In this document: in pieces, positions 1 through 41,017 of the stretch
Layout of the letters: each line of letters starts with the position of its first letter
Numbering within the stretch: position 1 is the stretch's first letter
IMG/VR virus record: IMGVR_UViG_3300024264_000002
Coordinates: 1-41,017 of that record
Direction: 5' to 3' (one strand)
Origin: a virus
DNA: 41,017 nucleotides
The notes under the pieces: model-generated
What the model was told of the DNA's origin: nothing
What the model saw: the letters and a program-made list of their open reading frames with translations, nothing else
The model's database searches: none
Program-made: the position numbers and the translations under genes

Positions 1-379
1 TATTTACTAGGCATTTTACTACTTCAAGGTTATTATTTATAACAGCAATGTGTAAAGGTGTAATCCCATCTTCGCACCTAGTATTAACATCCGCTCCTTT
101 ATTTACTAGGCATTTTACTACTTCAAGCTTTCCCTCCCGAGCAGCATAATGTAAAGGTGTAATCCCATCTTCGCACCTAGTATTAACATCCGCTCCTTTA
201 TTTACTAGGCATTTTACTACTTCAAGCTTTCCCTCCTGAGCAGCATAATGTAAAGGTGTAATCCCATATTTGTTCCTAGCATTAACATCCGCTCCTTTAT
301 TTACTAGGCATTTTACTACTTCAAGGTTATTATTCATTACTGCATTAAATAATTTTTTGTTTAATTCGTGTTTACTCAT
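1..379 (-). CDS. Ankyrin-repeat protein, N-terminal part only (start codon 377-379; ORF runs off the left edge)
   Basis: The reverse strand from ATG at 379 reads [59 protein letters not shown]... This is 33-aa ANK modules encoded by 99-bp repeats. The start region is near-identical to the ANK gene at 39970..40782. It is absent from the ORF track only because there is no stop inside the window. Confidence 0.8.
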   Translation of the reverse strand, partial: [126 protein letters not shown]

Positions 380-963: not shown

Positions 964-1766
964 GCTACCTCTCTAATACTTTGTAGTTCATTACTAACAT
1001 CGTCAAACTCATCAGCACGCATTGTTAAACCGAGATTCTTTGCCATTCTACGAATTGGCACAACTAACGCCATAGCTTCAAAATGATGACGCCATGGACT
1101 ATCTGACTTATGAGCACCTTTAGACGATGCCTTACTTTGGTCTATTTCATCACGATAACATACTTTGATTTGAGCTTCACCATTCTTTAGCTTAACTACT
1201 CCATAAGTTGCTATTAGCTTATCAAGACTTCTATCCCCATCTCTAGCTGGAATATGCTTAATATTTGGATTCATCCCTAGCTCATACGAAAACTCATCAT
1301 CTTCATATACTGCATAAGAATACACATTTGCTACTTGTGGGCTATTCCATAATAACTTGAGCCATCCTCTATAACCTATTTGAAAACCTAAACTCCCATT
1401 ATATGGTATCATCCAAACTTGACCTAAAGAAGACGCTGGGTCTAGCCCATATTCACAACACTTATAGAATGCATCTATCATAGACTTTTGACTGCACTGC
1501 CTTAGCTTATCGTTAGTATTAATTTCCCAGGCAAAAGAACGTGCCAACTTCTCAAACTGCATAGAGTTATTATTTAAGAATGGAAGTAGCTTATTTCTTC
1601 TCTTGTCGCAAAGGTCATATATAGCATCATTAGGTTTTAGTGCCTTTACTTCTTGTGTAGATACACTTACAACCTCCTGTGCGGTTGTGTTGATTTCTTC
1701 TTGTGTAGACACACTTACTACTTCTGATGTAGATGTGTTGATTTCTTCTTGTGTAGATGTATTCAT
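960..1766 (-). CDS. recT: RecT-family single-strand annealing protein
   Basis: The core ...CCEYGLDPASSLGQVWMIPYNGSLGFQIGYRGWLKLLWNS...VYEDDEF...IKH... is typical of RecT/Bet-like annealases. It lies directly downstream of a YqaJ-type exonuclease. The N-terminus carries a short tandem repeat, STQEEINT..EVVSV. Confidence 0.85.
   Translation of the reverse strand: MNTSTQEEINTSTSEVVSVSTQEEINTTAQEVVSVSTQEVKALKPNDAIYDLCDKRRNKLLPFLNNNSMQFEKLARSFAWEINTNDKLRQCSQKSMIDAFYKCCEYGLDPASSLGQVWMIPYNGSLGFQIGYRGWLKLLWNSPQVANVYSYAVYEDDEFSYELGMNPNIKHIPARDGDRSLDKLIATYGVVKLKNGEAQIKVCYRDEIDQSKASSKGAHKSDSPWRHHFEAMALVVPIRRMAKNLGLTMRADEFDDVSNELQSIREVA
1640..1766. repeat. About 51-bp tandem repeat (about 2.3 copies) encoding the RecT N-terminal tail
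   Basis: The DNA motif gttgatttcttcttgtgtaga(c/t)acacttac recurs. The protein reads STQEEINTSTSEVVSV / STQEEINTTAQEVVSV / STQEV. Confidence 0.8.
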
Positions 1767-1770
1767 ATAA

Positions 1771-2658
1771 CTAACCTCTCATGAATTGTAGAAACCTTGA
1801 GTGAGTTTCCTTTAAATAACTCTGATATATTTCTGGGTTTTGATTTTTTAAAGCTGTTGTATCCAACCTATTTATGGTCCTATCCTTTAAAGCTAGTTTG
1901 CAGAAACCAGCGTCAAGCTGACCTGCATTTTCCATATATACTAATATGGTGTTTTTTAATGATTCTTTTTCTTCTTCTAGCTTTTTCACTTGGTTGGATA
2001 CTTCCTGATATTCTGAAACTACATGACGAATATGATCATCCGCTTTTTTAACTAGCTCAGTATCAATTGATGGATAGGCTATTTTTAATTCCTCTGGTGT
2101 TCTAGGGCGGGGTGGTATTCCTTTAACTATATAATTCTGCCAGAAATCTATTACCGCTTGCTTAAGATTGGCCTCATACTCAGCATCTCTCCAATAAGTA
2201 AAACATGCATATTCCCAACCAGAAAATAACACTGGTATATCTACACGCTCGGCATCTGTTAACATTGCATAGAACGCTACTTGAGCCTTGTAATATTCAG
2301 GCAAACCATTATCCCACGCTGATATATTTGCCTTTGTAGTTTTAGCCTCAATAATAACATTCTGGCCTTTTATCCTGGCGTCAATATTTGCACGCATGAA
2401 TGGATATTCAGAGCTAACTATAGTTGGTATGTTTGTCTCTATAGTTTCACCACTGCGGTCTACATATTCTTTGAGTACAAACTCCTCAGCTAAGATGCCT
2501 CTACGCATATCCGCATTCATTTCGTCAACTACATCAGGGTTAAGCTTGTCATTGTACACGTCTAAAGCCGTTCTCCATGGTGATACTCCAAGGATAGCTG
2601 CACAATCACTGCCTCCTATACCTTTCTTGCGATCTAGTAAAAATTGTTCTCTACTCAT
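1771..2658 (-). CDS. YqaJ-like viral recombinase-associated exonuclease (PD-(D/E)XK)
   Basis: N-terminal GIGGSDCAAILGVSPW is the YqaJ signature. NIDARI...IIEAKTT matches the D...E-x-K catalytic core. It is paired with RecT. Confidence 0.85.
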   Translation of the reverse strand: MSREQFLLDRKKGIGGSDCAAILGVSPWRTALDVYNDKLNPDVVDEMNADMRRGILAEEFVLKEYVDRSGETIETNIPTIVSSEYPFMRANIDARIKGQNVIIEAKTTKANISAWDNGLPEYYKAQVAFYAMLTDAERVDIPVLFSGWEYACFTYWRDAEYEANLKQAVIDFWQNYIVKGIPPRPRTPEELKIAYPSIDTELVKKADDHIRHVVSEYQEVSNQVKKLEEEKESLKNTILVYMENAGQLDAGFCKLALKDRTINRLDTTALKNQNPEIYQSYLKETHSRFLQFMRG

Positions 2659-2893
2659 TCACAACCTCCCAATCATCAGCTAAGATATCTGCAGGCAAAA
2701 AATTGCTGTATTTAGACTCATTCTCATTATTAGGAAAAAAAGTTTTTAAAGGAATTTGCGACATATCACTTTCTGCCGTTGGTTTATATGCTACAAATAT
2801 ATGAACACAACGATTATTATCTGCAAAATACCATGTTTTTCTTCGTACTTTCCTACCTTCATAGGCAAGTTTTAAAGCTTCTATAATATTCAT
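2651..2893 (-). CDS. DUF2829/Tad2-like small protein (candidate anti-Thoeris signal sponge)
   Basis: From the internal Met the protein reads MNIIEALKLAYEGRKVRRKTW... and ends ...PADILADDWEVV. This matches my recollection of the DUF2829 N- and C-terminal signatures (EAL.ALK.GKKVRRKGW ... DLLA.DWE). I trimmed the start to 2893 because that ATG overlaps the upstream stop (ATGA). Confidence 0.5.
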   Translation of the reverse strand: MNIIEALKLAYEGRKVRRKTWYFADNNRCVHIFVAYKPTAESDMSQIPLKTFFPNNENESKYSNFLPADILADDWEVVNE

Positions 2894-3144
2894 GGCAATA
2901 CTACCTCCAAAGGTCTCCATACAACATTTTCTAACAAAATGCCTTCAGATAATTTCTCAGTAGCATCCGCCTTAATATCTAGCTTATCATTAGGCTTTAA
3001 CTCACCTACATACTCGGTATATTCTCTACAGTTAATTAGATACTGCCATTCATAATGACCTTCATCTAATATTAAATAATACGTTAAATCATCTATTGTA
3101 ACGTACCTATCAAAAGAACCTATAAACTCTCTACGATAACTCAT
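2890..3144 (-). CDS. Hypothetical protein
   Basis: ORF in an operon with its neighbours. I trimmed the start to the Met at 3144 (MSYRREF...), 2 nt after the upstream stop. Confidence 0.45.
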   Translation of the reverse strand: MSYRREFIGSFDRYVTIDDLTYYLILDEGHYEWQYLINCREYTEYVGELKPNDKLDIKADATEKLSEGILLENVVWRPLEVVLP

Positions 3145-3146
3145 GA

Positions 3147-3647
3147 CTACACCCCCAAACACGGTTGACTATAAAAGCTACGATACAAATCTTGCTGCGC
3201 TTCGCGCTCTCTCCTCTCGTAGTATTCAATTTCTTGCTGGAGTGCTACTGGGTCATATTCAGAAATATCCCAATCAACGCCTGCTCTATAAGCTTCTTCA
3301 AGCAACAACTCATAGTCCGCAACCTCATCTATAAGGTCGAACCAGTTTAAATTATTTTTGTCTATTGGGATTCTGTATTGAGAAACTTTATCTAAAAGCT
3401 CTTTGCCTCTATCGCCTAGTAGGAATTTGTTATCCGCTCTTTCAGATATATTCTTTAGGGTATTCGTGACGTCTTTTAAAGGTAGTCCAAAATCAGTTCT
3501 AACTTCATCTACAACGCCAACATTAGGCATATTAACTAGTGACATTATTCTCTCGCAGTCTATTTGTGATATCATTCTATCACAAATATTACATACTACG
3601 CCACTTATTCCTTTACTTATTAATGCTTTTTTGCTACTATATGACAT
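3147..3647 (-). CDS. Hypothetical protein, first gene of the recombination operon
   Basis: 166-aa ORF with a strong SD (GAGGAGG) 7 nt upstream of the ATG on the minus strand. No motif recognised. Confidence 0.55.
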   Translation of the reverse strand: MSYSSKKALISKGISGVVCNICDRMISQIDCERIMSLVNMPNVGVVDEVRTDFGLPLKDVTNTLKNISERADNKFLLGDRGKELLDKVSQYRIPIDKNNLNWFDLIDEVADYELLLEEAYRAGVDWDISEYDPVALQQEIEYYERREREAQQDLYRSFYSQPCLGV

Positions 3648-3716
3648 GATTTTGACCTCCTCTATGCGGTTGAAATTAAAGGCCTAATTGGCCTCTTTAA
3701 TATTTAATATTTTTAT

Positions 3717-3830
3717 TCATCTGTTCGAGCAGATGAGCCTTCGATGGAGCTAGCACTTGGATGTAGCTAGCCCCAAAGATAACTTAAGAAATTTAGGCAT
3801 CTAAGCTTTCGGTTTAGGTGCCTTTTTTTT
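3717..3830 (+). ncRNA. Candidate structured plus-strand RNA (two hairpins plus an intrinsic terminator); promoter not identified
   Basis: Hairpin TCATCTG/CAGATGA (3717-3736). Hairpin GGAGCTAGC/GCTAGCCCC (3746-3774, one mismatch). Terminator 3795-3830. All flanking genes are on the minus strand. Confidence 0.3.
3795..3830 (+). terminator. Rho-independent terminator, plus-strand orientation
   Basis: 10-12 bp stem AGGCATCTAA(GC)/(G.)TTAGGTGCCT with one G-U pair, followed by a run of T to 3830. On the minus strand the stem is followed only by AAATTTCTT. Confidence 0.6.
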
Positions 3831-3909
3831 AATTCCTTAAGCTATGATTGGAGTATAATGGGGGGTGAGGAGTTTGTCAAGCATTTACTTTAAAAAAAAA
3901 GTATTTAAT

Positions 3910-4419
3910 TTAATTATTCCAATTCTCAAGATACTTTTTTACTAGCCGCCTATCTCGTACAATCAAGATATTCTCAGCGTTTCGGGCATCTGCGGACTTA
4001 GTAAAGTTAAAAGAGCCAGTGAGCACTTTTTTCTCATCAATAATCATTATTTTGTTATGAGCTATGCCAGAAACTTTGGCTTTATATATTTTTATTCCTA
4101 CTTCTTCTAATTCTCTTATTAAGGGAAGTTTCTTTTTTGAGAAGTTGCTACTATCAAGGATTATCTCAACATTAACATTACGTTTTGTAGCTTCTTTTAG
4201 TGAGTTAATAATATCTGGATGGGTAAAGCCATACGCTTGGACGTATATACTCTTTTTTGCTTGGTCTATATGACTTACTATGAATGAACCGCATTGATTG
4301 TGCGGAGGAGTGAAGCATACTGAAAATTTAGACTCAGATGCTAAGGACGAAGTGGTAAGAAATAATAATATTAGAAAAAACTTGTTAATAGATCTCATTA
4401 ATCGTCGTAATGTCCCCAC
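3910..4419 (-). CDS. Secreted single-HKD phospholipase D-family protein (Nuc-like endonuclease / PLD)
   Basis: The N-terminal signal-like segment is FFLILLFLTTSSLA. The HKD motif is HNKIMIIDEKKVLTGSFNFTKSA (HxK(x)4D(x)6GSxN). Size and layout resemble plasmid Nuc and small bacterial PLDs. Confidence 0.85.
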   Translation of the reverse strand: MGTLRRLMRSINKFFLILLFLTTSSLASESKFSVCFTPPHNQCGSFIVSHIDQAKKSIYVQAYGFTHPDIINSLKEATKRNVNVEIILDSSNFSKKKLPLIRELEEVGIKIYKAKVSGIAHNKIMIIDEKKVLTGSFNFTKSADARNAENILIVRDRRLVKKYLENWNN

Positions 4420-6196: not shown

Positions 6197-6206
6197 AAAT
6201 TGCGAG
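6197..6206 (+). promoter_or_regulatory. AAATTGCGAG box, copy 1 (5 nt upstream of ATG 6212)
   Basis: Exact 10-mer; see findings. Confidence 0.6.
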
Positions 6207-6211
6207 AAATA

Positions 6212-7045
6212 ATGACAAAATATTTTTACTTCTTATTAACCTTAACCTTTAGAAGAATAAGGGACCATAGCTTTTATTTTTTAATCAAAACTAAACTACT
6301 TAAACAATATATGACATATTTAATTTATTTTGTAAAGCAAAAAATCCCAAAATCGGCATATTACGTAACTTGTGAAACTCATATATACTATTACGTTATA
6401 AAAATTTCATGGAGAAATAATTTGCTTGAATTAAATGCAATTGAATTATACGCACTACAAGATCATTTTCAAGATGAAGGGCTGTGTGAAGCTGGTGCTG
6501 AATGGTTATCTAGATTATCTGTTCATATAGGCCCTTACAAATCATGCGTTACTATAAAACAAATGATGAGGTATACAAAAAAATCTCGTACTCGTTGTTA
6601 TGAATATTTCAGGGATTCATTAAAATTAAAGTTAATCAATAAAAGTAGAACTCCTTCAATAGGTAATCATAATTGTATATCGATACAAATACCTATAAGG
6701 TTTTTATCACCTAAGCAAAAAGAAAACCCCTTCCTCACTTTCTACGGCAAACCAGTAGAAGAAATAGTTACAAACTATGATGGTAAAATCATTAAAGAAA
6801 TTAAACTACTAGATGTATACAGCACAGATGGACATATCCATTTTAAAGAATACTGGATACTCAAAGAAGTAGCTACAGAATCAGAATCAGAATCAGAATC
6901 AGAATCAGAATCAGAATCAGAATCAGAATCAGAATCAGAATCAGAATCAGACTCTATTTGTTTTAAAGCTGTACCTTATACATCTAAATCAAAACATTTT
7001 TTACTCAAAACACTTCAAATTAAACCTTTAGGAGTACACGCATGA
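6212..7045 (+). CDS. Hypothetical early protein with a C-terminal (Glu-Ser)12 tract
   Basis: The ORF track starts at 6104. That N-terminus looks like translated AT-rich leader. I placed the start at ATG 6212, right after the conserved box, but the true start could be further downstream. Confidence 0.4.
   Translation: MTKYFYFLLTLTFRRIRDHSFYFLIKTKLLKQYMTYLIYFVKQKIPKSAYYVTCETHIYYYVIKISWRNNLLELNAIELYALQDHFQDEGLCEAGAEWLSRLSVHIGPYKSCVTIKQMMRYTKKSRTRCYEYFRDSLKLKLINKSRTPSIGNHNCISIQIPIRFLSPKQKENPFLTFYGKPVEEIVTNYDGKIIKEIKLLDVYSTDGHIHFKEYWILKEVATESESESESESESESESESESESESDSICFKAVPYTSKSKHFLLKTLQIKPLGVHA
6878..6949 (+). repeat. Perfect hexanucleotide microsatellite (GAATCA)12 inside a CDS
   Basis: 72 bp of uninterrupted gaatca units encoding ESESES... 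Confidence 0.95.
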
Positions 7046-7179
7046 CCCGAGAACAAGAGCTTATGCTTTTAACAGAAAGATTACGAGTAATGATAATAGA
7101 AAAGCAATTTAACAATCATACGTTTGTTAACACTGTAGAAACATTATTAACAATATTAGAAGAACATTTGGAGGAATAG
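7042..7179 (+). CDS. Small hypothetical protein (45 aa)
   Basis: The ATG overlaps the upstream stop (ATGA at 7042-7045). The stop TAG at 7177-7179 abuts the next ATG at 7180. It is below the ORF-track size cut-off. Confidence 0.35.
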   Translation: MTREQELMLLTERLRVMIIEKQFNNHTFVNTVETLLTILEEHLEE

Positions 7180-7422
7180 ATGAGTAAAAAAGAATGGTGT
7201 AAGAAGGGAACTAAGGAAAAACGTGCTAAGAATCTTGATGAAGAGTTAAGCAAAATAATAGACAAAGCTTGTGAGTATATTGGTAGGACAGAGTTAACGA
7301 AGGAAGAAATAAGACACTGGTTTTTGCCTCTAATAGATAATTTGAGAGAAGTGAAAAATGAACTATTTATGTTTCAACTTCCTGAATCAATAGAAAAAGA
7401 AAAGAAGAAAACTGATGATTGA
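7180..7422 (+). CDS. Hypothetical early protein
   Basis: 80-aa ORF with SD GGAGGAA upstream, tightly packed in the early operon. Confidence 0.45.
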   Translation: MSKKEWCKKGTKEKRAKNLDEELSKIIDKACEYIGRTELTKEEIRHWFLPLIDNLREVKNELFMFQLPESIEKEKKKTDD

Positions 7423-7660
7423 AGAAGACCTGAAGAAAATAGCAATAGCTATGCTCATTCCGCAAGAGTGGAGAGCTAAGCAAATTGAAGAAGAATTTTT
7501 TAACCTGGGAAATAAGGAGCTTTTTAATGCACTGTTTAAACAGGCAAAACTAAGTTACCCGCTTACTATCACTGAAAGAGACTATCAATTTAATACGCCT
7601 ACGAAATTTAGAATCGCTGATCATACTGCACAAAATACAGGAGATAATATCAATGAATAA
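7415..7660 (+). CDS. Hypothetical early protein
   Basis: 81-aa ORF that overlaps both neighbours by a few nt (operon packing). Confidence 0.45.
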   Translation: MIEEDLKKIAIAMLIPQEWRAKQIEEEFFNLGNKELFNALFKQAKLSYPLTITERDYQFNTPTKFRIADHTAQNTGDNINE

Positions 7661-11402: not shown

Positions 11403-11810
11403 ATGACAGAAAAGAACTTGGGCGGTCGTCCCGAAATTGAACTCACAGAAAAACAAATAAAAAAAGTTGAAAGATTATCTGCTCATTTAACAACCGAGCA
11501 AATAGCTGATTATTTTGGCATAGATAGAAGTACCTTTTATGAAATTAGAAAGCGTCAGCCAGAGGTTTCCCAACAGTATAAAAAAGGTAGAGCTCAAAAA
11601 ATCTTAAAGTTATCCAAAAAAATAGAAAATAAATCAATGGGTATTGATGAAACTGGATGTGCTACATCTCTTATTTTTTCATTAAAAGCTCTAGGTGAAT
11701 GGTCAGAAAAACAAGTAGTTGAGACCAAAGATACAACTCCATTAAAAAAAGAACCAAGACAAATTAATATATACGTAAATGAAAAGCCAGCGCACAGACT
11801 TGAGGATTGA
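11403..11810 (+). CDS. terS: Terminase small subunit (HTH type)
   Basis: MTEKNLGGRPEIELTEKQIKKVERLSAHLTTEQIADYFGIDRSTFYEIRK...IFSLKALGEWSEK resembles GRP...HTH...W small terminases. It lies immediately upstream of, and overlaps, TerL. The start is trimmed from the track's 11346. Confidence 0.65.
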   Translation: MTEKNLGGRPEIELTEKQIKKVERLSAHLTTEQIADYFGIDRSTFYEIRKRQPEVSQQYKKGRAQKILKLSKKIENKSMGIDETGCATSLIFSLKALGEWSEKQVVETKDTTPLKKEPRQINIYVNEKPAHRLED

Positions 11811-13020
11811 GTGGTGGCAATTACTACTATTTCAACCTTGTAGATACAAAATAATTTATGGAGGACGTGGAAGCGGTAAATCTTTTGCTGTAGCTGATGC
11901 ACTACTAACTCAAGCTGCGTCAAAATACTGTCTAGTTCTGTGCGGTCGTGAGTTTCAGAATTCAATTAAGGACAGCGTTCACTCATTGCTAAAACAAAGG
12001 ATAGAGGTGTTAGGGTTGTCTGAAGATTACGAAATAACGCACGATACTATTAAGTGTATAACTACCAATAGCCGCTTTATCTTCAAAGGTTTATATCATA
12101 ATATTGACAGTATTAAATCCATGGCAGGTATTACCCATTTATGGATAGAGGAAGCTGATACTCTCTCTGCTGAAAGCTGGAAAATAATTAAGCCAACTAT
12201 TAGAAATGAAGGCTCTGAGATTTGGATTACGATGAATCCTAAGAATAGAGAGGATGTCTTATACAGAGAATTTATAGAACCTAAAGAAGTTCCTGATAAT
12301 ACTTATAGAGTAAAGGTAAACTGGCAAGATAACCCATACTTTCCAAATGTTCTAAAAGATGAGATGGAGCGGGATAAGGAAAGAGATTATGGATATTACC
12401 GCCACGTATGGGAAGGGGAGTGCCTGGAGCATTCAGAGGCTCAAGTGTTTGCTAAAAAATGGACCGTAATTCGGGATGAAGATTTTAAGGAAGACATATC
12501 GGTACATAAATATTTTGGCTTAGATTTTGGTTACTCACAAGACCCAACGGCTGGCATCAGGTGCTACGCTAAAGATAATGTATTGTATATCACCCACGAG
12601 GCTTTTCAAACAAAGCTTGAGATAGATAATATAGGATATTTTTTAATACAACATTTACCAGACTTAAGAGGCAATGCTATATATGCAGACAGTTCACGTC
12701 CTGAAACAATTTCTCATATCAACAAAAAAGAATATGGCTTTAGCGTTTATGGTGCAGATAAAGGTAAAGGTTCAATTGAGGATGGTATAGAGTATATCAG
12801 ATCATTTGATAAAATCATTATTCACGAAAGATGCAAGAATATAGCCAATGAATTTGCTACATATTCATTTAAAGTAGATGAGCGAAGCGGTGATATTACT
12901 AACAAGGTTGAAGATAAAAACAATCACGGAATCGATGCTCTACGCTATGCTTTAGAACGCTCCATGAAGAGGTCACTAGTTAATTACCAGAAAATGAAAT
13001 TAAATGCAGGTAGGTTTTAG
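11779..13020 (+). CDS. terL: Terminase large subunit (PBSX/Terminase_3-like)
   Basis: Walker A is YGGRGSGKS and Walker B-like is HLWIEEAD. The C-terminal nuclease region carries GLDFGYSQDPTA and NHGIDALRYAL. The exact start is uncertain. Confidence 0.85.
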   Translation: MKSQRTDLRIEWWQLLLFQPCRYKIIYGGRGSGKSFAVADALLTQAASKYCLVLCGREFQNSIKDSVHSLLKQRIEVLGLSEDYEITHDTIKCITTNSRFIFKGLYHNIDSIKSMAGITHLWIEEADTLSAESWKIIKPTIRNEGSEIWITMNPKNREDVLYREFIEPKEVPDNTYRVKVNWQDNPYFPNVLKDEMERDKERDYGYYRHVWEGECLEHSEAQVFAKKWTVIRDEDFKEDISVHKYFGLDFGYSQDPTAGIRCYAKDNVLYITHEAFQTKLEIDNIGYFLIQHLPDLRGNAIYADSSRPETISHINKKEYGFSVYGADKGKGSIEDGIEYIRSFDKIIIHERCKNIANEFATYSFKVDERSGDITNKVEDKNNHGIDALRYALERSMKRSLVNYQKMKLNAGRF

Positions 13021-14187
13021 ATGTCTGATAGAAACACATTACGGATATTATCACTGGATGGTGGTGGAATGCGAGGCTATCTTTCTGCTATTTTCTTTAA
13101 GCTTTTTGTTCAACAATGGGGAATAAATGCTAATGAGATATGGAAACATTTTGACATAATTACTGGTAGCTCTATTGGTGGTATTACGGCTCTTGCCTAT
13201 GCTAGCGGAAAATCTCCCACTGATATATTGCCATTTTTTACTGAAGATGGGCCATGGATATTTACAACAAGTACCAGCACTCCATCATCTAGACCATCAA
13301 CCTTAACGAAAATTAATACTATTGTTGGCGGCCCATTAAGTAGCCCAACCTTTTATCCAAGTACCACCGATGGAATAGGTACAAAAAGATTAAAGAGTAA
13401 ATTAGATAATGTCTTCGGCATACAAACAATGCAGGATATGAAGACTAATGTTCTAATTACTTCTTTTGAGAAGAATGCTACAGAAACAGATTTTACTCAA
13501 GATAGCAATACACCAATATATTTTTCTAATAGTAATATAGTACCAGTATTAATTGGTCAAAATAATTTAGCCGTAGATGTAGCAATGGCAACAAGTGCTG
13601 CTCCTTTATATTTTCCATCATGGCAGATTGGAGAAGATAAATATATTGATGGCGGAGTAGTACAAAATAATCCAGCATCTTTAGGTCTTGCAATAGCTAA
13701 ATCCTTAAAACCAACAGCAAAACGTTATTGCGTTTTATCAATAGGTACTGGTCTTGGCGATGTGGGTTTTGCATCTACTCAAACCAATATAGTAAAGCAA
13801 AGAGCTATACAGGAAGCTACAGAGTTAAGAAATAATCCAAAAGCGTTTGCTGAAAAATGGCAGTTATCTAGTAGAGAGGTAAAGAGCTTACAGCAAGTAA
13901 GTTCTAATTTAAAGCTTTTAGAAGGTGCATATCTAATTATGTATTTAATTGGTGCTATGGGCGGCGGTGCTCAAGAAATAGTTGCCAAAGAATTAGAGAT
14001 AGAAAGTAAATATACGCTGGATAATTTATATTATTACCGCATGCAATATTATTTAGACCCTGTCAAAGATACAGAGCTGGATAATTCAACATCTTCTATA
14101 CTTGCGTATTATGAGGAATCAGCAACAAACTATTTTAATAATGATATAGCAAATATTAGTAGTTTTATCTCAAGGTTAATAGCATGA
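13021..14187 (+). CDS. Patatin-like phospholipase
   Basis: Oxyanion motif LDGGGMRGY, nucleophile elbow GSSIGG (GxSxG) and catalytic Asp motif YIDGGVVQNNP. The ATG abuts the TerL stop (TAGATG). Its stop overlaps the next ATG (ATGA at 14184-14187). Confidence 0.85.
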   Translation: MSDRNTLRILSLDGGGMRGYLSAIFFKLFVQQWGINANEIWKHFDIITGSSIGGITALAYASGKSPTDILPFFTEDGPWIFTTSTSTPSSRPSTLTKINTIVGGPLSSPTFYPSTTDGIGTKRLKSKLDNVFGIQTMQDMKTNVLITSFEKNATETDFTQDSNTPIYFSNSNIVPVLIGQNNLAVDVAMATSAAPLYFPSWQIGEDKYIDGGVVQNNPASLGLAIAKSLKPTAKRYCVLSIGTGLGDVGFASTQTNIVKQRAIQEATELRNNPKAFAEKWQLSSREVKSLQQVSSNLKLLEGAYLIMYLIGAMGGGAQEIVAKELEIESKYTLDNLYYYRMQYYLDPVKDTELDNSTSSILAYYEESATNYFNNDIANISSFISRLIA

Positions 14188-15854
14188 ATTATGATGTTTT
14201 ACATAATTTTATATCACCTGTTACTGGTAGGGTACTATGCAAGGAAGATTATATTCTAGTTGGTAATAGGGATAATATTGCAGACCCTAGCCCTGCTTTA
14301 ATTGATACTAAGCTTGATTTAATCAAATTACGGCATGATGTAAATGAGTTATTAAATGCTACATTTATATTAGAGGAAGCTAATTTTAAATTACCCAAAG
14401 CTCAAGCCTTGAATATATTAGATAATGGATTTATGTATAATACAGGCGGAATTATCAGCACGACTAATGATGTACCACTGCCCAGTTTAGAATACAAGCA
14501 TTTATGGATAGGAGATAGTAATAATAAGTCTCAAGCTGTTACTACAATTGATATTGATAACTTACCATCACTTGGAACAACAGATGTACCGACTCCTACC
14601 GGTGGCTTTGTTGGTAAGGTTTGGGAAGGTACATCATCAGGGAGACCAGAAGAATCTAGTATTGTTGGTGAGATGTTTGCTGATATTGGAATACTTAATG
14701 CTAAGTTTCTAGCTGGGCATTTTGTTATGAATAGTGGCCTTACTGCATCTTTTCCAAAAGCTCAGTTTTTAAATGCATTAACAGCAGGAGGGTTGGTTAA
14801 AACAAGTAGTGCAGGTGATGGAAAGCTAGAAGCGGTTACACTAAACCAAGACCAAATATTAATGGGCGGTGCTAATAATGTGCCAGAATCAAGAGCAAGA
14901 ATAGGGATAGAGAATTTACCGCTACTTGCAGACAAAAAATTATGGTCAGGTAATGCAGATAGTATTCCACAAAGTATTACAACAATAGATATTAGTAATT
15001 TACCCAATCTTGCTAATAATAATTTATGGATGGGAGGAGAGGATAATCGCCCAATAGCGAAAGTAAGTATTGATATAACCAATCTACCAAACCTTGAACA
15101 AAACAAATTATGGCTAGGTGATGCTGGCAATAGACCAGTAGCACAAAGCACGCTAAATGTAGATAATCTACCTAATCTAACTAATAACATGGTATGGCAA
15201 GGCAATGCCCAAGGACGCCCAACAGAAGTAGAACTTAATTTTGCACCTGTTGATGCTACTTATATATTAAAAACCCCTAAAATAGGTTTGAATAATGCGC
15301 AGGTGTTATCTGAGTTGGTAGGTGGAATATTAAAAAGTGCACCATTAACTGGTACATTAAGCAACGCAATATCAGGAGTTGATTACGCCGCTGAAGCATC
15401 TGTTGTAGCAGCACAAGCTACTGCAGATGGAGCAGCTGCAGAAGCTACCGCTGCAGCAACTGCCGCAGCAGCCGCTCCAGCAGCAGGTGCAGCATTAGCT
15501 GCTGTATATTTTAATGAGCAAATGCTTCCTTATAGTTTAGTACCATTAGTACCAGCTGGAGCTAGCATAAGTGCTGCAATAGGTATTGCCGCTGCTGCGG
15601 CAGCAAGTGCAGCTAGTGATGCAAGTTCGGCTCAAACCACAGCAAATACAGCTATTACACGTATTGACAATTTAAATGTCGCCTTACAAGGGGATATAAT
15701 AGGTAGTGGCAATTTGAAAAATCCTGTTATTACAACTTTTAAATCAAATCCAGTATTTACAGGTACAGGGTCAATGACTATTCCTGTAGGAACAACAGCA
15801 GAAAGACCTAGTAATCCAACTACGGGTATGGTAAGATTGAACACAGAATTATAA
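14184..15854 (+). CDS. Tail fibre segment 1 (repeat-rich)
   Basis: Five or six tandem ~23-aa units (IDI.NLPNL..N.LW.G....RP). An Ala-rich tract follows. The C-terminus is PVGTTAERPSNPTTGMVRLNTEL. Confidence 0.6.
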   Translation: MNYDVLHNFISPVTGRVLCKEDYILVGNRDNIADPSPALIDTKLDLIKLRHDVNELLNATFILEEANFKLPKAQALNILDNGFMYNTGGIISTTNDVPLPSLEYKHLWIGDSNNKSQAVTTIDIDNLPSLGTTDVPTPTGGFVGKVWEGTSSGRPEESSIVGEMFADIGILNAKFLAGHFVMNSGLTASFPKAQFLNALTAGGLVKTSSAGDGKLEAVTLNQDQILMGGANNVPESRARIGIENLPLLADKKLWSGNADSIPQSITTIDISNLPNLANNNLWMGGEDNRPIAKVSIDITNLPNLEQNKLWLGDAGNRPVAQSTLNVDNLPNLTNNMVWQGNAQGRPTEVELNFAPVDATYILKTPKIGLNNAQVLSELVGGILKSAPLTGTLSNAISGVDYAAEASVVAAQATADGAAAEATAAATAAAAAPAAGAALAAVYFNEQMLPYSLVPLVPAGASISAAIGIAAAAAASAASDASSAQTTANTAITRIDNLNVALQGDIIGSGNLKNPVITTFKSNPVFTGTGSMTIPVGTTAERPSNPTTGMVRLNTEL

Positions 15855-15859
15855 AAATA

Positions 15860-15869
15860 AAATTGCGAG
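15860..15869 (+). promoter_or_regulatory. AAATTGCGAG box, copy 2 (7 nt upstream of ATG 15877)
   Basis: Exact 10-mer in the 22-nt gap between fibre segments 1 and 2. Confidence 0.6.
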
Positions 15870-15876
15870 TATTATA

Positions 15877-16287
15877 ATGGCAAGACGAGAATATTATGAT
15901 GGTACCCAATGGGTAGTTGAGACTGATGGAACTGTAAAATCTATAACAGCAGGAACAGGTCTTGATGGTGGTACTATTACTGATACTGGTACAATAACAC
16001 TTGCAAATACAGCAGTTACTGCAGGTAGCTATGATTATGCTTCTATTACTGTAGATGAGCAAGGTAGAATAACTCTTGCAAATTCTGGTACTCCGCCTGT
16101 AACTTCTATTAGTGGTACTGCTAATCAAGTTGATGTAACTGGTACAACAATCTCATTATCGCAGGCTATCGAATGTCCAGGTGATTTAGCAGTTAGTAAT
16201 GGTAATTTTACTCTGCCTGTTGGAACAACTGCAGAGCGCCCAGTCTCTCCAGTAATTGGTATGATGCGAATTAATACAGATTTATAA
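15877..16287 (+). CDS. Tail fibre segment 2 (136-aa cassette)
   Basis: Starts MARREYYDGTQWV and ends PVGTTAERPVSPVIGMMRINTDL. It therefore carries the second half of the motif at its N-terminus and the first half at its C-terminus. Confidence 0.55.
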   Translation: MARREYYDGTQWVVETDGTVKSITAGTGLDGGTITDTGTITLANTAVTAGSYDYASITVDEQGRITLANSGTPPVTSISGTANQVDVTGTTISLSQAIECPGDLAVSNGNFTLPVGTTAERPVSPVIGMMRINTDL

Positions 16288-16290
16288 ACA

Positions 16291-17619
16291 ATGGCAAAAC
16301 CAGAATATTTTGATGGAACTGAGTGGCAGACTTGCTGTGATGGGGCTGAAGTCTCAGTAGAAAACGCACCAAGTACGCCTATTCCTATAACAGGCTCCCT
16401 AACTATTGCAGCAGGCTTAGTTAATATGAATCTTGGCGCAGAGCTTAATGCCTTATCAGCATTTTCTCAGAATGGGATAATGGTTAGAACTGGTACTGGC
16501 AGTTACGCGGGAAGAAGCTTGGTAGCAGCAGATGGGGTAAATATTACTAATGCTGATGGTGTTGCTGATAATCCGATCATTGGCTTAGGCACAGTTGCTA
16601 TTAATAAATTGGCAGGCTATCCCAATAATAACTCATTGTTTTTAAATGGCAGCGGTATATGGAGTAATCCTTTATTTGTTGATACTAATGCTAGCACTTA
16701 TCGTATGCAGTTAAATAATAGTAATTTGAATGCCACAGCTACTGGTCTAATTATTCAGAAGAATGCTGTTGATATGGTAGAGTTTGGCTTTAACAATTCA
16801 ACTAATGAAGCTTATTTCTGGGGAATAGGTCCTGCTGCTTTAAAATTTGGTACTGATGCTACTAAAAGAATGGAGATATTAAGTAATGGTTTAATCAATG
16901 CTTTCAATAAATTTACCTTTTTTGAAAACAGCAAACAGATATATATCAGAGCATCCAGTAATTATTTAGATTTGCGTGGTGATAATGTTAGAAACTCGAA
17001 AGCATCAGCTATCTTAGAAACTAATGCCTATAATGAGACAGCATCGATTGTTATGAATGGTGATTATATTCAAACAATACAGACTTTTGATGATTTAGGT
17101 TTTATCTTTACTGATGATGATGCTGATCCAACCACTAGCTATCAATCTTATATCTCTTCTAATGGAAGTCTTGTTACTGCAAGTTCTAAGAATATCAAGC
17201 AAAGTATACGACCAAAACAAAAGAAGAACTATCTAGAAAGGTTAAATAAACTTAATGTTTATAGCTACTCATTAAAAACACCAATTGATAAAGATGATAG
17301 CCAAAAAAGAAAATGCAGAAAATATTTTAAGAATAAACAATTACATGTAGGACTTCTGTCTGAAGAGGTAAATACATTATTTGATAATGCTACTGATAAT
17401 TATAAGACTATTGATGTTGATGCGGGCAATAAGCAAGAAATTGCTAAAACAGTTGGCAATTACAGGCCAGAAATATCAGAAGCAGATTATATCAAAGATA
17501 AAATGGCAAAAAGAGGTGAGGTTACTGGTATTAATTACAATACACTTTTCTGTTATGCAATTTTAGCAATACAGGAACTAACAGAGAAAGTAGCTAAATT
17601 AGAAGAACGTATAGTTTAA
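16291..17619 (+). CDS. Tail fibre segment 3 with a C-terminal peptidase-S74-like intramolecular chaperone domain
   Basis: Starts MAKPEYFDGTEWQ. The C-terminal region (from about 17180) reads SSKNIKQSI...LNVYSY...HVGLLSEEV...INYNTLFCYAILAIQELTEKVAKLEERI. This resembles the auto-cleaving chaperone of endosialidase/fibre proteins. Confidence 0.65.
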   Translation: MAKPEYFDGTEWQTCCDGAEVSVENAPSTPIPITGSLTIAAGLVNMNLGAELNALSAFSQNGIMVRTGTGSYAGRSLVAADGVNITNADGVADNPIIGLGTVAINKLAGYPNNNSLFLNGSGIWSNPLFVDTNASTYRMQLNNSNLNATATGLIIQKNAVDMVEFGFNNSTNEAYFWGIGPAALKFGTDATKRMEILSNGLINAFNKFTFFENSKQIYIRASSNYLDLRGDNVRNSKASAILETNAYNETASIVMNGDYIQTIQTFDDLGFIFTDDDADPTTSYQSYISSNGSLVTASSKNIKQSIRPKQKKNYLERLNKLNVYSYSLKTPIDKDDSQKRKCRKYFKNKQLHVGLLSEEVNTLFDNATDNYKTIDVDAGNKQEIAKTVGNYRPEISEADYIKDKMAKRGEVTGINYNTLFCYAILAIQELTEKVAKLEERIV

Positions 17620-18053: not shown

Positions 18054-18400
18054 AATTTGTAGATTACCAGAGTTTAATTTTTTCAAACTTAGCAGACCAA
18101 AAAACAGTCTTGTTAAGTGTTGAAAAGCCTACGTTTTTAAATGCAGTGAATATTTGTAATACTTCTGAAGAGAATATCAGAATCAATCTGCAAACAGTAA
18201 GGCTTTTATCTAGCCCTAAGCAAGAAAATTTTTTGGTGAAGAATATACTTATCCAACCAAATGAAAGCCATAATCTAATGTTTCTTGGTAATTTAGAAGT
18301 GTTTTTGAAGGATGGAGATAATTTGCTGTGTTTTTCTAATGGTTATAGCCAGTTATTTGATTGCACTATTTGTTATACGGAGTTAAATGAAAAGATATGA
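18050..18400 (+). CDS. Hypothetical protein
   Basis: 116-aa ORF with ATGA-type overlaps to both neighbours. Confidence 0.45.
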   Translation: MKFVDYQSLIFSNLADQKTVLLSVEKPTFLNAVNICNTSEENIRINLQTVRLLSSPKQENFLVKNILIQPNESHNLMFLGNLEVFLKDGDNLLCFSNGYSQLFDCTICYTELNEKI

Positions 18401-20217
18401 AAAAACAAACAATAGGTAAGCAAAAAGCTCTCAAAGATTTACAGGATTATTATGAGTATGCTAATAATTCTGCGGTAAGACAGCAATGGCTTAACCAATA
18501 TTTGATAAATCTCAGCTTTTATCGTGGTAATCAGTGGCTTGACCCTAATATACTAAAAGATATGCAGGATATAGGTGCAACTCCATATACCTACAATAAT
18601 ATAGAGCCACTAGTAAATACATTTGTTAGTCTGCAGATTCGTTCTAGTAAAAGAGTGGGATATGAAGCAAGTTCTGATAATCCAGAACATGTTAAATTAG
18701 CAGAATATCTTAAGCATTTAGCATATGAAATTCAGACTCAAAATGATTATGTATATTTTTCATCACAAAAATTCACATCGAGTTTAATAGGTGGTATAGG
18801 TTGGTCCTATTTTACCTATAAAAATGATAAATTTTGTTATGAGTATATAGATCCAATAGAAGTCCTTTGGGACCCAGATGATAGAAGTGCAAGATTAGAT
18901 GATTCAAACTTTGTATGTAGAGTTCATTATGTGCAAGCATTAAAGCTAAAAAACCAATATCCAGAACATGCAAAAGAATTTGAACAAATGGTAGAGGAAA
19001 ACTCTACTAATCCATCAGATTATACGGCATATAACACAGTATCTGAGAGTTCTTTTTGGAATCAGTTTGGCAGTGGTAGTAACACAGTCGGCAATCCACA
19101 AGATGATGGAGCATGGGTTCGTGGACGTTCTATAAAAATAGTTGAAGTATTTTATAAAAAATCAGCTAAATATTATGAAACAACAGTTATATTTCCAGAA
19201 GATTCTACAGGCAATGCCATTCCTAACGAACAATTATTTAATACATTCGATGAATCAATTGCTAAAGATAAGTCAGTTAATGGAGAAATAGTAATAAAAG
19301 ATGGAACGCAAATATGGCATGGAGTGTTTTGTGATAATCTTCTCATAGAAAATAATCCTATAGCAGAGCAAATACCAAACCAAAAATATTTACCATTAAC
19401 ACCAGTAGTATTAAAACGCGACTATCAAGGTTTACCTTATGGTGTAATAGATAATTTAATATCACCACAAAAGACGCATAACTTTTTGTGGTCAACAACT
19501 CTGCATTATCTAGATGCTAAAACAATTATAGCAAGTGATGAGCAAGTAGACAAAGACAAATTGCGAGAGTTCTTAAAAGACGAGATGCGTAGTAAAAATG
19601 GTGTAGCATTTGTTAAAAATCCTCGTGAGTTGCAAGTTTTAGATCATGAGAAAAATTTAAATCATCGTATGAACCTAATACAGGCAAATTACAAAGAATT
19701 TGAAACTCAAACAGGATTGTACGATGAACTAAAGGGAGAAAAGACTAATGCCATATCAGGAGTAGCTATTGCTCAAAGAGCTAACAACTCAATGAACGCA
19801 CAAAATGCATTAATTCTTGCCTATGAAAATATGATTATATCCGAAGGTAAGTTGATGCTTGATACAATAAAAGGATTAAACAACTTCCAGTATAGTTTTA
19901 AGTTTTTTGCAAATGGTAGAAATCAATCAGCTACGTTGGACGATTCAATTTCACTACTAAATTTTGAAGTGTATCCAGATGTATCACCTAATTTCTCATC
20001 AACTATAGAAGAAGAAAAAGCGAGGTTTGCAGAATTAATGAATAGTCCTAATCCTGCATTACTGATGAGTTCTCCGTTATTCTTACGTGAGCTTGGATTT
20101 AGAGAAAATATAGCCTATGAATTATCAGAAGAATATTTGCGTATAATGGGGTTAATGCAACCACAAGAGCAACAAACTGCTGAACAAAATGAACAAGAAA
20201 ATGAGGTCACACAATGA
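18397..20217 (+). CDS. Portal protein (putative)
   Basis: 606 aa, positioned immediately upstream of the scaffold and capsid genes. N-terminal ...SFYRGNQWLD... resembles the portal FY.G.QW motif. The C-terminal tail is acidic and Gln-rich. Confidence 0.6.
   Translation: MKKQTIGKQKALKDLQDYYEYANNSAVRQQWLNQYLINLSFYRGNQWLDPNILKDMQDIGATPYTYNNIEPLVNTFVSLQIRSSKRVGYEASSDNPEHVKLAEYLKHLAYEIQTQNDYVYFSSQKFTSSLIGGIGWSYFTYKNDKFCYEYIDPIEVLWDPDDRSARLDDSNFVCRVHYVQALKLKNQYPEHAKEFEQMVEENSTNPSDYTAYNTVSESSFWNQFGSGSNTVGNPQDDGAWVRGRSIKIVEVFYKKSAKYYETTVIFPEDSTGNAIPNEQLFNTFDESIAKDKSVNGEIVIKDGTQIWHGVFCDNLLIENNPIAEQIPNQKYLPLTPVVLKRDYQGLPYGVIDNLISPQKTHNFLWSTTLHYLDAKTIIASDEQVDKDKLREFLKDEMRSKNGVAFVKNPRELQVLDHEKNLNHRMNLIQANYKEFETQTGLYDELKGEKTNAISGVAIAQRANNSMNAQNALILAYENMIISEGKLMLDTIKGLNNFQYSFKFFANGRNQSATLDDSISLLNFEVYPDVSPNFSSTIEEEKARFAELMNSPNPALLMSSPLFLRELGFRENIAYELSEEYLRIMGLMQPQEQQTAEQNEQENEVTQ
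19558..19567 (+). promoter_or_regulatory. AAATTGCGAG box, copy 3 (internal to the portal gene)
   Basis: Exact 10-mer in sense orientation, but not next to an annotated start. Confidence 0.4.
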
Positions 20218-29001: not shown

Positions 29002-29011
29002 AAATTGCGAG
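29002..29011 (+). promoter_or_regulatory. AAATTGCGAG box, copy 4 (10 nt upstream of ATG 29022)
   Basis: Exact 10-mer. Confidence 0.6.
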
Positions 29012-34161: not shown

Positions 34162-34171
34162 CTCGCAATTT
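34162..34171 (-). promoter_or_regulatory. AAATTGCGAG box, copy 5 (minus strand, 6 nt upstream of GTG 34155)
   Basis: The plus strand reads CTCGCAATTT. Confidence 0.55.
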
Positions 34172-40866: not shown

Positions 40867-41017
40867 TTATTCATTATTCCCCCTAGCATCAACATCCGCT
40901 CCTTTATTTACTAGGCATTTTACTACTTCAAGGTTATTATTTATAACAGCAATGTGTAAAGGTGTAATCCCATCTTCGCACCTAGTATTAACATCCGCTC
41001 CTTTATTTACTAGGCAT
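40867..41017 (-). CDS. Ankyrin-repeat protein, C-terminal part only (continues beyond the right edge; probably the same gene as 1..379 if the molecule is circular)
   Basis: The stop codon at 40867-40869 sits in the same ATTGATTTATTCATTATTCCCCC context as the stop of the gene at 39970. Positions 40905-41017 are identical to 1-113. Confidence 0.7.
   Translation of the reverse strand, partial: [49 protein letters not shown]

Follow-up and report, generated by a model that had tools for sequence, protein, structure and literature searches.

A phage tail-fiber unit divided between consecutive genes: a candidate joint between fiber segments in a podovirus-like genome

The subject of this work is the tail-fiber module of a podovirus-like genome, the IMG/VR virus record IMGVR_UViG_3300024264_000002 (positions 1 to 41,017; this whole stretch of 41,017 nucleotides (nt) is referred to below as the window). 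The module consists of three open reading frames (ORFs) on the plus strand, 14184-15854, 15877-16287 and 16291-17619, which are adjacent and co-oriented and encode proteins with fiber-type domains (Pfam, PHROG), as is expected of a fiber encoded by several genes. At both borders between these genes a short unit that is unbroken in hundreds of phage fiber proteins is cut at the same place, and its first half forms the C-terminus of the upstream product while its second half forms the N-terminus of the downstream one. Judging from the comparison of related loci, the split is old and apparently kept by selection. We consider it probable that consecutive fiber segments dock by rebuilding the unit, predicted to be a triangular β-prism, in trans, where the physical pairing of the halves in the virion is what we infer.

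The composite unit and its two halves

The unit follows the pattern PxGTTAxRP..P..GMxRxN-(6 aa)-ExYxGxxW (aa, amino acids), with the invariant P, G, R, G, R, N and E and the near-invariant T, T, P and W taken as its signature columns. The first-pass annotation of the window, made from the sequence alone, stated that this pattern occurs elsewhere as one contiguous block, and this proved correct: a tblastn search with the artificially fused junction as a query, a check proposed in that annotation, matched 149 phage records, mostly from cyanomyoviruses, and inspection of these and further matches showed the unit unbroken. Examples include cyanophage S-RIM12 ('PVGTSAQRPTSPVGGMLRYNSELDRLEFYDGTTW'), phage zth2-2 ('PSGTTAQRPSSPNVGMQRWNTDLGAMEYWNGTIW') and the metagenomic protein P0057 ('PVGTTAQRANPQSGDLRFNSTTNLMEYYDGTQW'), and about 80 further copies, from 80 IMG/VR loci, are all contiguous, with none split. 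The profile of the contiguous unit matches 309 proteins, several of which are labelled PF26696 'PTL_trimer' (a precomputed label, taken here by its name only). From the invariant N to the invariant E, 69 of 71 and 143 of 145 copies (212 of 216 together) have a loop of six residues. A literature search for the motif, for PF26696/PTL_trimer and for strand complementation in tail fibers returned nothing on these subjects in the library that it covered. A relationship to Kelch domains, indicated by a PDB profile match to designer Kelch propellers (YNTHLNSVEAYDP), was considered and rejected as a short β-hairpin resemblance rather than homology.

In the window the unit is not carried by one polypeptide, the chain being broken at both junctions. 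The first gene (14184-15854) encodes the proximal fiber segment of 556 aa. This protein begins with the virion-attachment region (MNYDVLHNFISPVTGR) and also contains NLPxL..LWxG repeats and a stretch rich in Ala; it terminates in PVGTTAERPSNPTTGMVRLNTEL-TAA, which is half-motif 1 (15781-15854) and reads P-V-G-T-T-A-E-R-P ... G-M-V-R-L-N, then T-E-L and the stop codon. The second gene (15877-16287) encodes a connector cassette of 136 aa that starts with MARREYYDGTQW and ends with PVGTTAERPVSPVIGMMRINTDL-TAA; it comprises half-motif 2 (M-ARR-EYYDGTQW, predicted strands 2-3), a core fiber repeat (GTVKSITAGTGLDGGTITDTGTITLANTAVTAGSY..ITVDEQGRIT) and a half-motif 1 of its own. The third gene (16291-17619) encodes the distal fiber tip of 442 aa, which starts with MAKPEYFDGTEW, where half-motif 2 takes the form M-AKP-EYFDGTEW, followed by the region for receptor binding and, towards the C-terminus, by an intramolecular chaperone of the Peptidase_S74 type (residues 298-367 match Pfam PF13884 with E=4.7e-6 and 27.2 bits, cut-off 22); it also matches PHROG 1980 'tail fiber protein' (E=8.8e-10). 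The gene coordinates and the end and start sequences reported in the first-pass annotation are exact, and its claim that both junctions cut a single composite pattern holds: halves 1 (PVGTTAERP..P..GMxRxN) and 2 (EYYDGTQW / EYFDGTEW) jointly contain every invariant column at either junction (alignments A4 and A5). Beyond the two junctions, no further copies of the half-motifs were found in the window.

The fold of the joined unit was examined through a natural contiguous homolog, P0059. Its AlphaFold2 model, built on an alignment of 101 sequences, has a predicted local distance difference test score (pLDDT) of 87-95 over the motif and exhibits a helical turn (TAQ) followed by the strands IRYN, HFEGY and WIH. 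The Foldseek comparison of this model with the PDB identified the N-terminal fragment (anchor domain) of tailspike protein 4 (TSP4) of phage CBA120, the C-terminus of CBA120 TSP3 (47 residues, root-mean-square deviation (rmsd) 2.1 Å, probability 1.0) and Mtd of Bordetella phage BPP-1 (37 residues, rmsd 2.1-2.3 Å). At the sequence level the best PDB match was Gp49 of the entries 9D83/9D84 (residues 370-407 of 410, E=2.9e-5). In CBA120 TSP4 each subunit contributes a three-stranded antiparallel sheet, and the three sheets form a triangular β-prism II (PMC8825819). The model and these matches indicate that the contiguous unit would be a three-stranded sheet that builds a trimeric β-prism. On the P0059 model, G-M-V-R-L-N of half-motif 1 corresponds to predicted strand 1, and the modelled strands together with the solved tailspikes place the gene borders of the window in the turn that links strands 1 and 2. 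When the 136-aa protein was modelled by AlphaFold2 as a single chain, EYY and WVV near its N-terminus were also predicted to be strands (pLDDT about 71).

The two junctions have different layouts. At junction 1 (15855-15876, plus strand) the genes are separated by 22 nt and offset by +1 in frame; this spacer contains the box AAATTGCGAG (15860-15869), including a Shine-Dalgarno (SD)-like GAG 7 nt ahead of the ATG. Junction 2 (16285-16293, plus strand) consists of TAA (16285-16287), ACA and ATG (16291-16293), all in frame and with no separate SD sequence; its stop codon is followed by A, and its layout suggests termination-reinitiation coupling. The in-frame layout of junction 2 and the frame change and box at junction 1 are as the first-pass annotation described them. 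At each junction the stop codon follows the third loop residue (TEL or TDL) and the new ATG lies three residues ahead of the invariant E, and the loop is divided into TEL/TDL and (M)ARR/(M)AKP, which makes 3 + 3 residues provided that the initiator Met is cleaved off. The DNA identity between the two junction regions is only about 75%, while the amino-acid motif is kept; together with the same cut at every junction of at least 13 related loci (see below), this argues that the shared split is not a product of chance.

Conservation of the split and exchange of fiber modules

The same cut is present at every junction in at least 13 distinct related loci, in which the cassette is conserved down to 55% identity. 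The arrangement of a shaft that ends in half 1, a cassette with both halves and a tip that starts with half 2 was found in L005-L010, L091-L098, L172, L173 and L175, which come from independent metagenomes, and half-motif 1 stands at the end of every ortholog of the first gene in L007, L091-L097 and L172-L175. More than 35 full-length cassette homologs (135-143 aa, again down to 55% identity) exhibit the same two ends: all start with M-x(2-4)-E-[YF]-Y-[DN]-G-x-x-W and all end with G-M-x-R-x-N-x-x-L-stop. The invariant columns of the cassette family are the half-motif positions (E5, G9, P114, G116, T117, T118, R121, P122, G128, R131 and N133), with W12 kept in at least 90% of the sequences. P0306 (1682 aa), a protein that ends in half-motif 1, was considered as a second split lineage and rejected, since it is cut off by the end of its contig.

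The number of cassettes, which the first-pass annotation had proposed to compare among relatives, varies: there is one in most loci, two in L175, and a fused one in L142. The two free-standing cassettes of L175 (145 and 143 aa, 49% identical to each other) create three split junctions, each in a frame different from that of the upstream gene and two of the three with an AAGAGG SD sequence. L142, assigned to the same lineage by its N-terminus (DILHTFLSPVSGRL), encodes a 1771-aa fiber that holds the contiguous '...GVFRYNTTINNAEYYNGTSWVVIGSGTVTSITAG...' where the window has '...GMVRLNTEL-stop MARREYYDGTQWVVETDGTVKSITAG...'; this long fiber itself ends in half 1, and the following gene starts with MARLELWDGTGW. 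An exhaustive search with a profile hidden Markov model of the cassette matched 9244 representative proteins, the core of the cassette being a tandem repeat of long fibers, and in P0276, P0243 and P0323 the whole cassette is found within a single protein, flanked by contiguous motifs; the only free-standing cassette among the representatives is P0280. The proteins of the module also diverge discordantly: between L091 and the window the identity is 68% for the first gene, 96% for the cassette and 42% for the tip. Across the loci the tips are non-homologous or divergent, yet all of them start with half-motif 2; they comprise S74 fibers of 441-442 and 734 aa, types of 486-491 aa and 499-555 aa, a 263-aa Collar-domain protein, a 426-aa protein and a 175-aa protein. 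By this comparison of sequences the fiber modules are evidently mobile and the split and fused forms interchangeable. The discordant divergence and the varying tips and cassette numbers support the suggestion of the first-pass annotation that the 136-aa unit is an exchangeable cassette.

Two side observations concern L142. Between the fiber that ends in half 1 and the tip gene that starts with half 2 there is a 580-nt insert (6580-7157), which apparently encodes a small, very hydrophobic protein and is possibly a moron placed at the split joint. In addition, the 1771-aa fiber (1264-4000) has about 25 copies of the NLPxL..N.LWxGxxxNRP repeat (family D1), of which only three are recognizable in the shaft gene of the window (14481-15120), and this expansion implies that the shaft length varies via a second, independent repeat system.

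The gaps between the genes vary widely: intergenic distances of -1, 0, 2, 3, 4, 5, 9, 12, 13, 16, 21, 22, 28, 29, 30, 62, 76 and 82 nt and frame offsets of 0, 1 and 2 are all observed among the related junctions, several of which have their own AAGAGG or GGAG ribosome-binding sites. This bears on a further explanation offered by the first-pass annotation, namely a recently split gene with optional read-through. Suppression of the TAA at 16285-16287 would then fuse the 136-aa and 442-aa proteins; the fused chain would carry the motif unbroken, and the two separate proteins would count as by-products. The in-frame junction 2 with a single sense codon between stop and ATG, shared by the window, L005, L091, L092 and L172, agrees with such a device, as does the fraction of in-frame junctions, about 10 of about 18 non-redundant ones, i.e. 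somewhat above one third. However, the 3-nt in-frame gap is confined to the closest relatives (TAA ACA ATG in L005, L091 and L172, TAA AAA ATG in L092), and elsewhere junction 2 measures -1, 0, 2, 4, 5, 9, 12, 16 or 28 nt and falls in all three frames, with the distances of -1 (a TAATG overlap), 2, 4, 5 and 28 nt in frames 1 or 2. In L007 junction 2 is in frame but carries a second in-frame stop codon; the junction-1 gaps of 22, 62, 76 and 82 nt are out of frame; and none of the three junctions of L175 is in frame, two of them having their own AAGAGG SD sequence. Read-through would also extend the six-residue loop to nine residues, and TAA is the most efficient stop codon in bacteria. The variation of frames and gaps in the relatives means that the in-frame TAA of the window is incidental and not a conserved device. 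We therefore regard functional read-through as very improbable, and the notion of a recent split finds no support, given an ancient split with all three offsets, gaps of up to 82 nt and separate SD sequences.

A related possibility is that a single long fiber gene is decaying, i.e. that the three ORFs are a recently broken gene, a pseudogene or an assembly artefact. Unsplit forms do exist: besides the fused 1771-aa version in L142, the sole cultured relative, Megaira polyxenophila phage MAnkyphage_25.80 (portal identity 44%), has one 1520-aa 'tail fiber' gene in the same slot (patatin - fiber - three small ORFs - portal), whose product shares the N-terminus of the type found in the first gene (MKYDRLYNFISPVTGK) and an S74-type C-terminus. 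The GTTAxRP motif is absent from this 1520-aa protein. Against decay, exactly the same protein occurs on 5 independent contigs, the borders are kept unchanged in more than 35 homologs, even at 55% identity, every downstream gene starts at an ATG of its own 3-5 residues ahead of the invariant E, and both halves are under purifying selection. The probability that we assign to a broken gene, a pseudogene or an assembly artefact is negligible.

A putative joint completed in trans

In the reading that we propose, one fiber is built from three trimeric segments in succession, each the product of one of the three ORFs: a virion-anchored shaft, a 136-aa connector and an S74-bearing receptor-binding tip. 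The joint between them would be a fold of about 40 residues, composed of the extended PxGTTAxRP segment, strand 1 (GMxRxN), a six-residue turn and the hairpin of strands 2 and 3 (ExYxGxxW), and three such sheets would pack as a triangular β-prism on the fiber axis. The upstream protein would supply the extended segment and strand 1, and the extreme N-terminus of the downstream protein strands 2-3; each face of the prism could then be completed only in trans, which would lock one trimer non-covalently onto the next, as in donor-strand complementation. The invariant Arg of strand 1 and the invariant Glu of strand 2, both kept, would reside on different chains. If every segment has the same socket (the C-terminal half) and the same plug (the N-terminal half), cassettes and tips could be added, duplicated, fused or exchanged by recombination with no redesign of the interface. 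More speculatively, trimerization begun by the C-terminal S74 chaperone of the tip may spread proximally through the joints.

The same conserved ends could be explained by recombination alone. According to this alternative, the half-motifs are only crossover points for the exchange of cassettes and tips, the proteins make contact with each other or with the virion elsewhere on their surface, and neither half folds with any chain but its own. The abrupt shifts of identity at the junctions in the mosaic relatives and the variation of tip type and cassette number are in line with it. On the other hand, strand 1 and the hairpin of strands 2-3 share one small sheet in the contiguous homologs, and no partner is evident within the same chain for a strand 1 that stands alone at the C-terminus or for a hairpin alone at the N-terminus. 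Moreover, conservation is at the level of amino acids, with many synonymous and other DNA differences (the two junctions are only 75% identical in DNA), a pattern that suits homologous recombination poorly but is common under structural constraint; R in strand 1 and E in strand 2 both remain invariant on their separate chains. We thus find it unlikely that the half-motifs are recombination linkers and nothing else. Docking remains the best-supported reading, because the halves equal a fold that is normally contiguous, the cut lies in a predicted β-turn, the split is conserved, and fused and split forms coexist; of the three options in the first-pass annotation it is the one to be preferred, the cassette option stands beside it, and only the recent split with read-through lacks support. 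Cassette exchange, which the sequence comparisons support, is compatible with docking.

Several results weigh against docking in trans. For so small a domain Foldseek gave only weak E-values (0.01-0.4), and the sequence-level matches to TSP3 and TSP4 are at E of about 1. The 136-aa protein modelled as a single chain scored low (mean pLDDT 62) and its C-terminal half has no structure; the N- and C-terminal halves exhibit no sign of pairing with each other, which at this quality is uninformative. The length of the loop summed over the split junctions that were compared (excluding the start Met) is not strictly conserved but ranges from 5 to 8, most often 6, and atypical N-terminal halves occur at junction 1 of L006 and in L173 (MAQLEVCLDGVNF; possibly with a 30-residue N-terminal extension).

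In L173 the middle gene is a variant of 246 aa (6401-7141), with half-motif 2 (SQLEYTDGTNW) about 30 residues past the called start and an atypical C-terminal half (GTLRYWNGL), and the gene at 7157-7519 starts with MADGFEYWSNSNQW and runs into a collagen-like GPQGPQG stretch. Either the start has been mis-called or the joint is modified in this locus.

It is tempting to generalize the proposed docking. The split prism could be a self-ordering plug-and-socket connector, in which the C-terminus of a segment stays unfinished until the next hairpins arrive, assembly nucleated by S74 proceeds from distal to proximal, and any protein with Mxxx-ExYxGxxW can be mounted on any protein with GTTAxRP..GxxRxNxxL; we offer this extension tentatively and judge its chances to be somewhat below even. 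Were docking by split prisms confirmed, the assembly order of fiber segments could be read from the sequence by matching a socket end to a plug start, the small 'hypothetical' ORFs between fiber genes would be explained, and the lineage would be seen to change fiber length and receptor specificity by inserting, duplicating, fusing and swapping cassettes at a standard joint. The pair of 25 and 12 residues could serve as a trans trimerization tag, with fibers of programmable length or specificity and the modular design of receptor-binding proteins as possible applications. It would also be a clean natural case of a fold that tolerates a chain break in a turn, kept by selection on two genes.

Multi-gene fibers and modular docking systems are already known, and the proposed joint has to be compared with them. 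The contiguous unit of fibers and tailspikes (the CBA120 TSP4 anchor, the TSP3 C-terminus and BPP-1 Mtd) has the same signature, loop length and predicted sheet once the halves are joined. In those proteins, however, one chain makes the whole sheet, whereas in the window the break falls within the predicted turn that joins strands 1 and 2, and the halves belong to successive products.

The nearest precedent that we found for the split joint is the tailspike of Shigella phage B2, a complex of gp49 and gp48 (PDB 9D83/9D84), which corresponds to the single gp82 of phage Moo19 (PMC11654681). As is proposed for the window, a structure encoded by one gene in a relative is divided among co-assembling products, here two, and gp49 carries the motif at its extreme C-terminus (residues 370-407 of 410, as above). 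Unlike in the window, the motif is complete in gp49 and the break is located behind it, a repeated cassette is lacking, and the N-terminus of gp48 (MANQLFSQGG, deduced from the cloning primer) is devoid of half-motif 2.

The receptor-binding complexes of branched type (CBA120 TSP1-4, G7C gp63.1/gp66 and the anchor-branch system of Klebsiella phage) are likewise modular and exchangeable and dock non-covalently (PMC8825819, PMC6872550), but their docking relies on complete domains that are dedicated to it, be they T4 gp10-like XD2/XD3 or conserved anchor peptides, and they bind side-on instead of completing a split fold along the axis.

The segments of the T4 long tail fiber (gp34-gp35-gp36-gp37), trimeric or monomeric, are encoded by neighboring genes and joined end to end, and in this respect the adjacent genes of the window would make one fiber in the same way as those of T4. 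To our knowledge, the T4 joints have not been described as one repeated fold split between the partners, nor do the T4 segments form a set of exchangeable cassettes whose plugs and sockets are all alike. In the chaperone-usher pili the incomplete β-sheet of one subunit is completed by the N-terminal strand of the next (donor-strand complementation), which yields an ordered non-covalent polymer. The likeness to the proposed joint is limited to this principle of completion and is a mechanistic analogy only: the pilins have an Ig-like fold that lacks its last strand, and the pili are chains of monomers and require a periplasmic chaperone and an usher, whereas the fold predicted here is a trimeric prism, and none of the three fiber proteins of the window matched a pilin, chaperone or usher family in Pfam or PHROG.

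Genome context and further observations on the module

The first 113 nt of the window (1-113) are repeated at its end (40905-41017), which identifies it as a circularly closed assembly of about 40.9 kb with a GC content of about 33%; it is a complete phage genome, circularly permuted, or a genome with a terminal repeat. The genes around the fiber module are arranged in the order terminase (11779-13020), patatin (13021-14187), the three fiber genes, three small ORFs and a P22-type portal gene (18397-20217). A scan of genome contigs reported no prophage relative of the first fiber gene.

The gene encoding the patatin-like phospholipase (13021-14187) is located between the terminase and the fiber genes and overlaps the fiber start by 4 nt (ATGA). 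This position is kept in MAnkyphage_25.80 and in most relatives with sequenced flanks, L007 being without it; the gene occupies 6969-8012 in L001, 3262-4428 in L172, 3203-4360 in L173 and 1826-2989 in L175. The patatin-like lipase could be associated with the virion or with the fiber.

In the scan of the window, promoter and terminator signals between the three fiber genes did not rise above background. The junction-1 spacers of several relatives contain an extended -10-like site, TGTTATAAT or TGTTAAAAT (L006, 136-217; L093, 5061-5136; L094, 6079-6154; L095, 959-988; L096, 6091-6120; L097, 6088-6116), of which there is no counterpart in junction 1 of the window. These predicted sites suggest that in such relatives the cassette and the tip may be transcribed from a promoter of their own.

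The gene-1 frame, when continued through 15855-15902, reads TEL-stop-K-stop-NC-EYYNG. The pattern 'EYY[ND]G' thereby appears twice, in the real motif (CGAGAATATTATGATGG) and 20 nt ahead of it (CGAG-TATTATAATGG). We considered whether the spacer of junction 1 is a relic of a lost half-motif or of a 20-nt duplication and rejected this idea: the box is kept in L091 and L092, but the gap there is 21 nt long, which puts the EYYNG reading out of frame. The EYYNG of the spacer is probably a chance product of the SD sequence, the AT-rich spacer and the ATG-G.

The 10-mer AAATTGCGAG itself is present in five exact copies in the 41 kb (6197-6206, 15860-15869, 19558-19567 and 29002-29011 on the plus strand, 34162-34171 on the minus strand), compared with an estimated expectation of about 0.1. 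One copy lies inside the portal gene. Three copies precede an ATG by 6-10 nt, and each of these has a TATAAT-like stretch after it (aaATAATg, tatTATAATg and gTATAATgatATG). Of the loci fetched for comparison, the closest relatives L005, L091 and L092 alone have the 10-mer, which they keep at junction 1, and it may be a lineage-specific translation-initiation or regulatory element.

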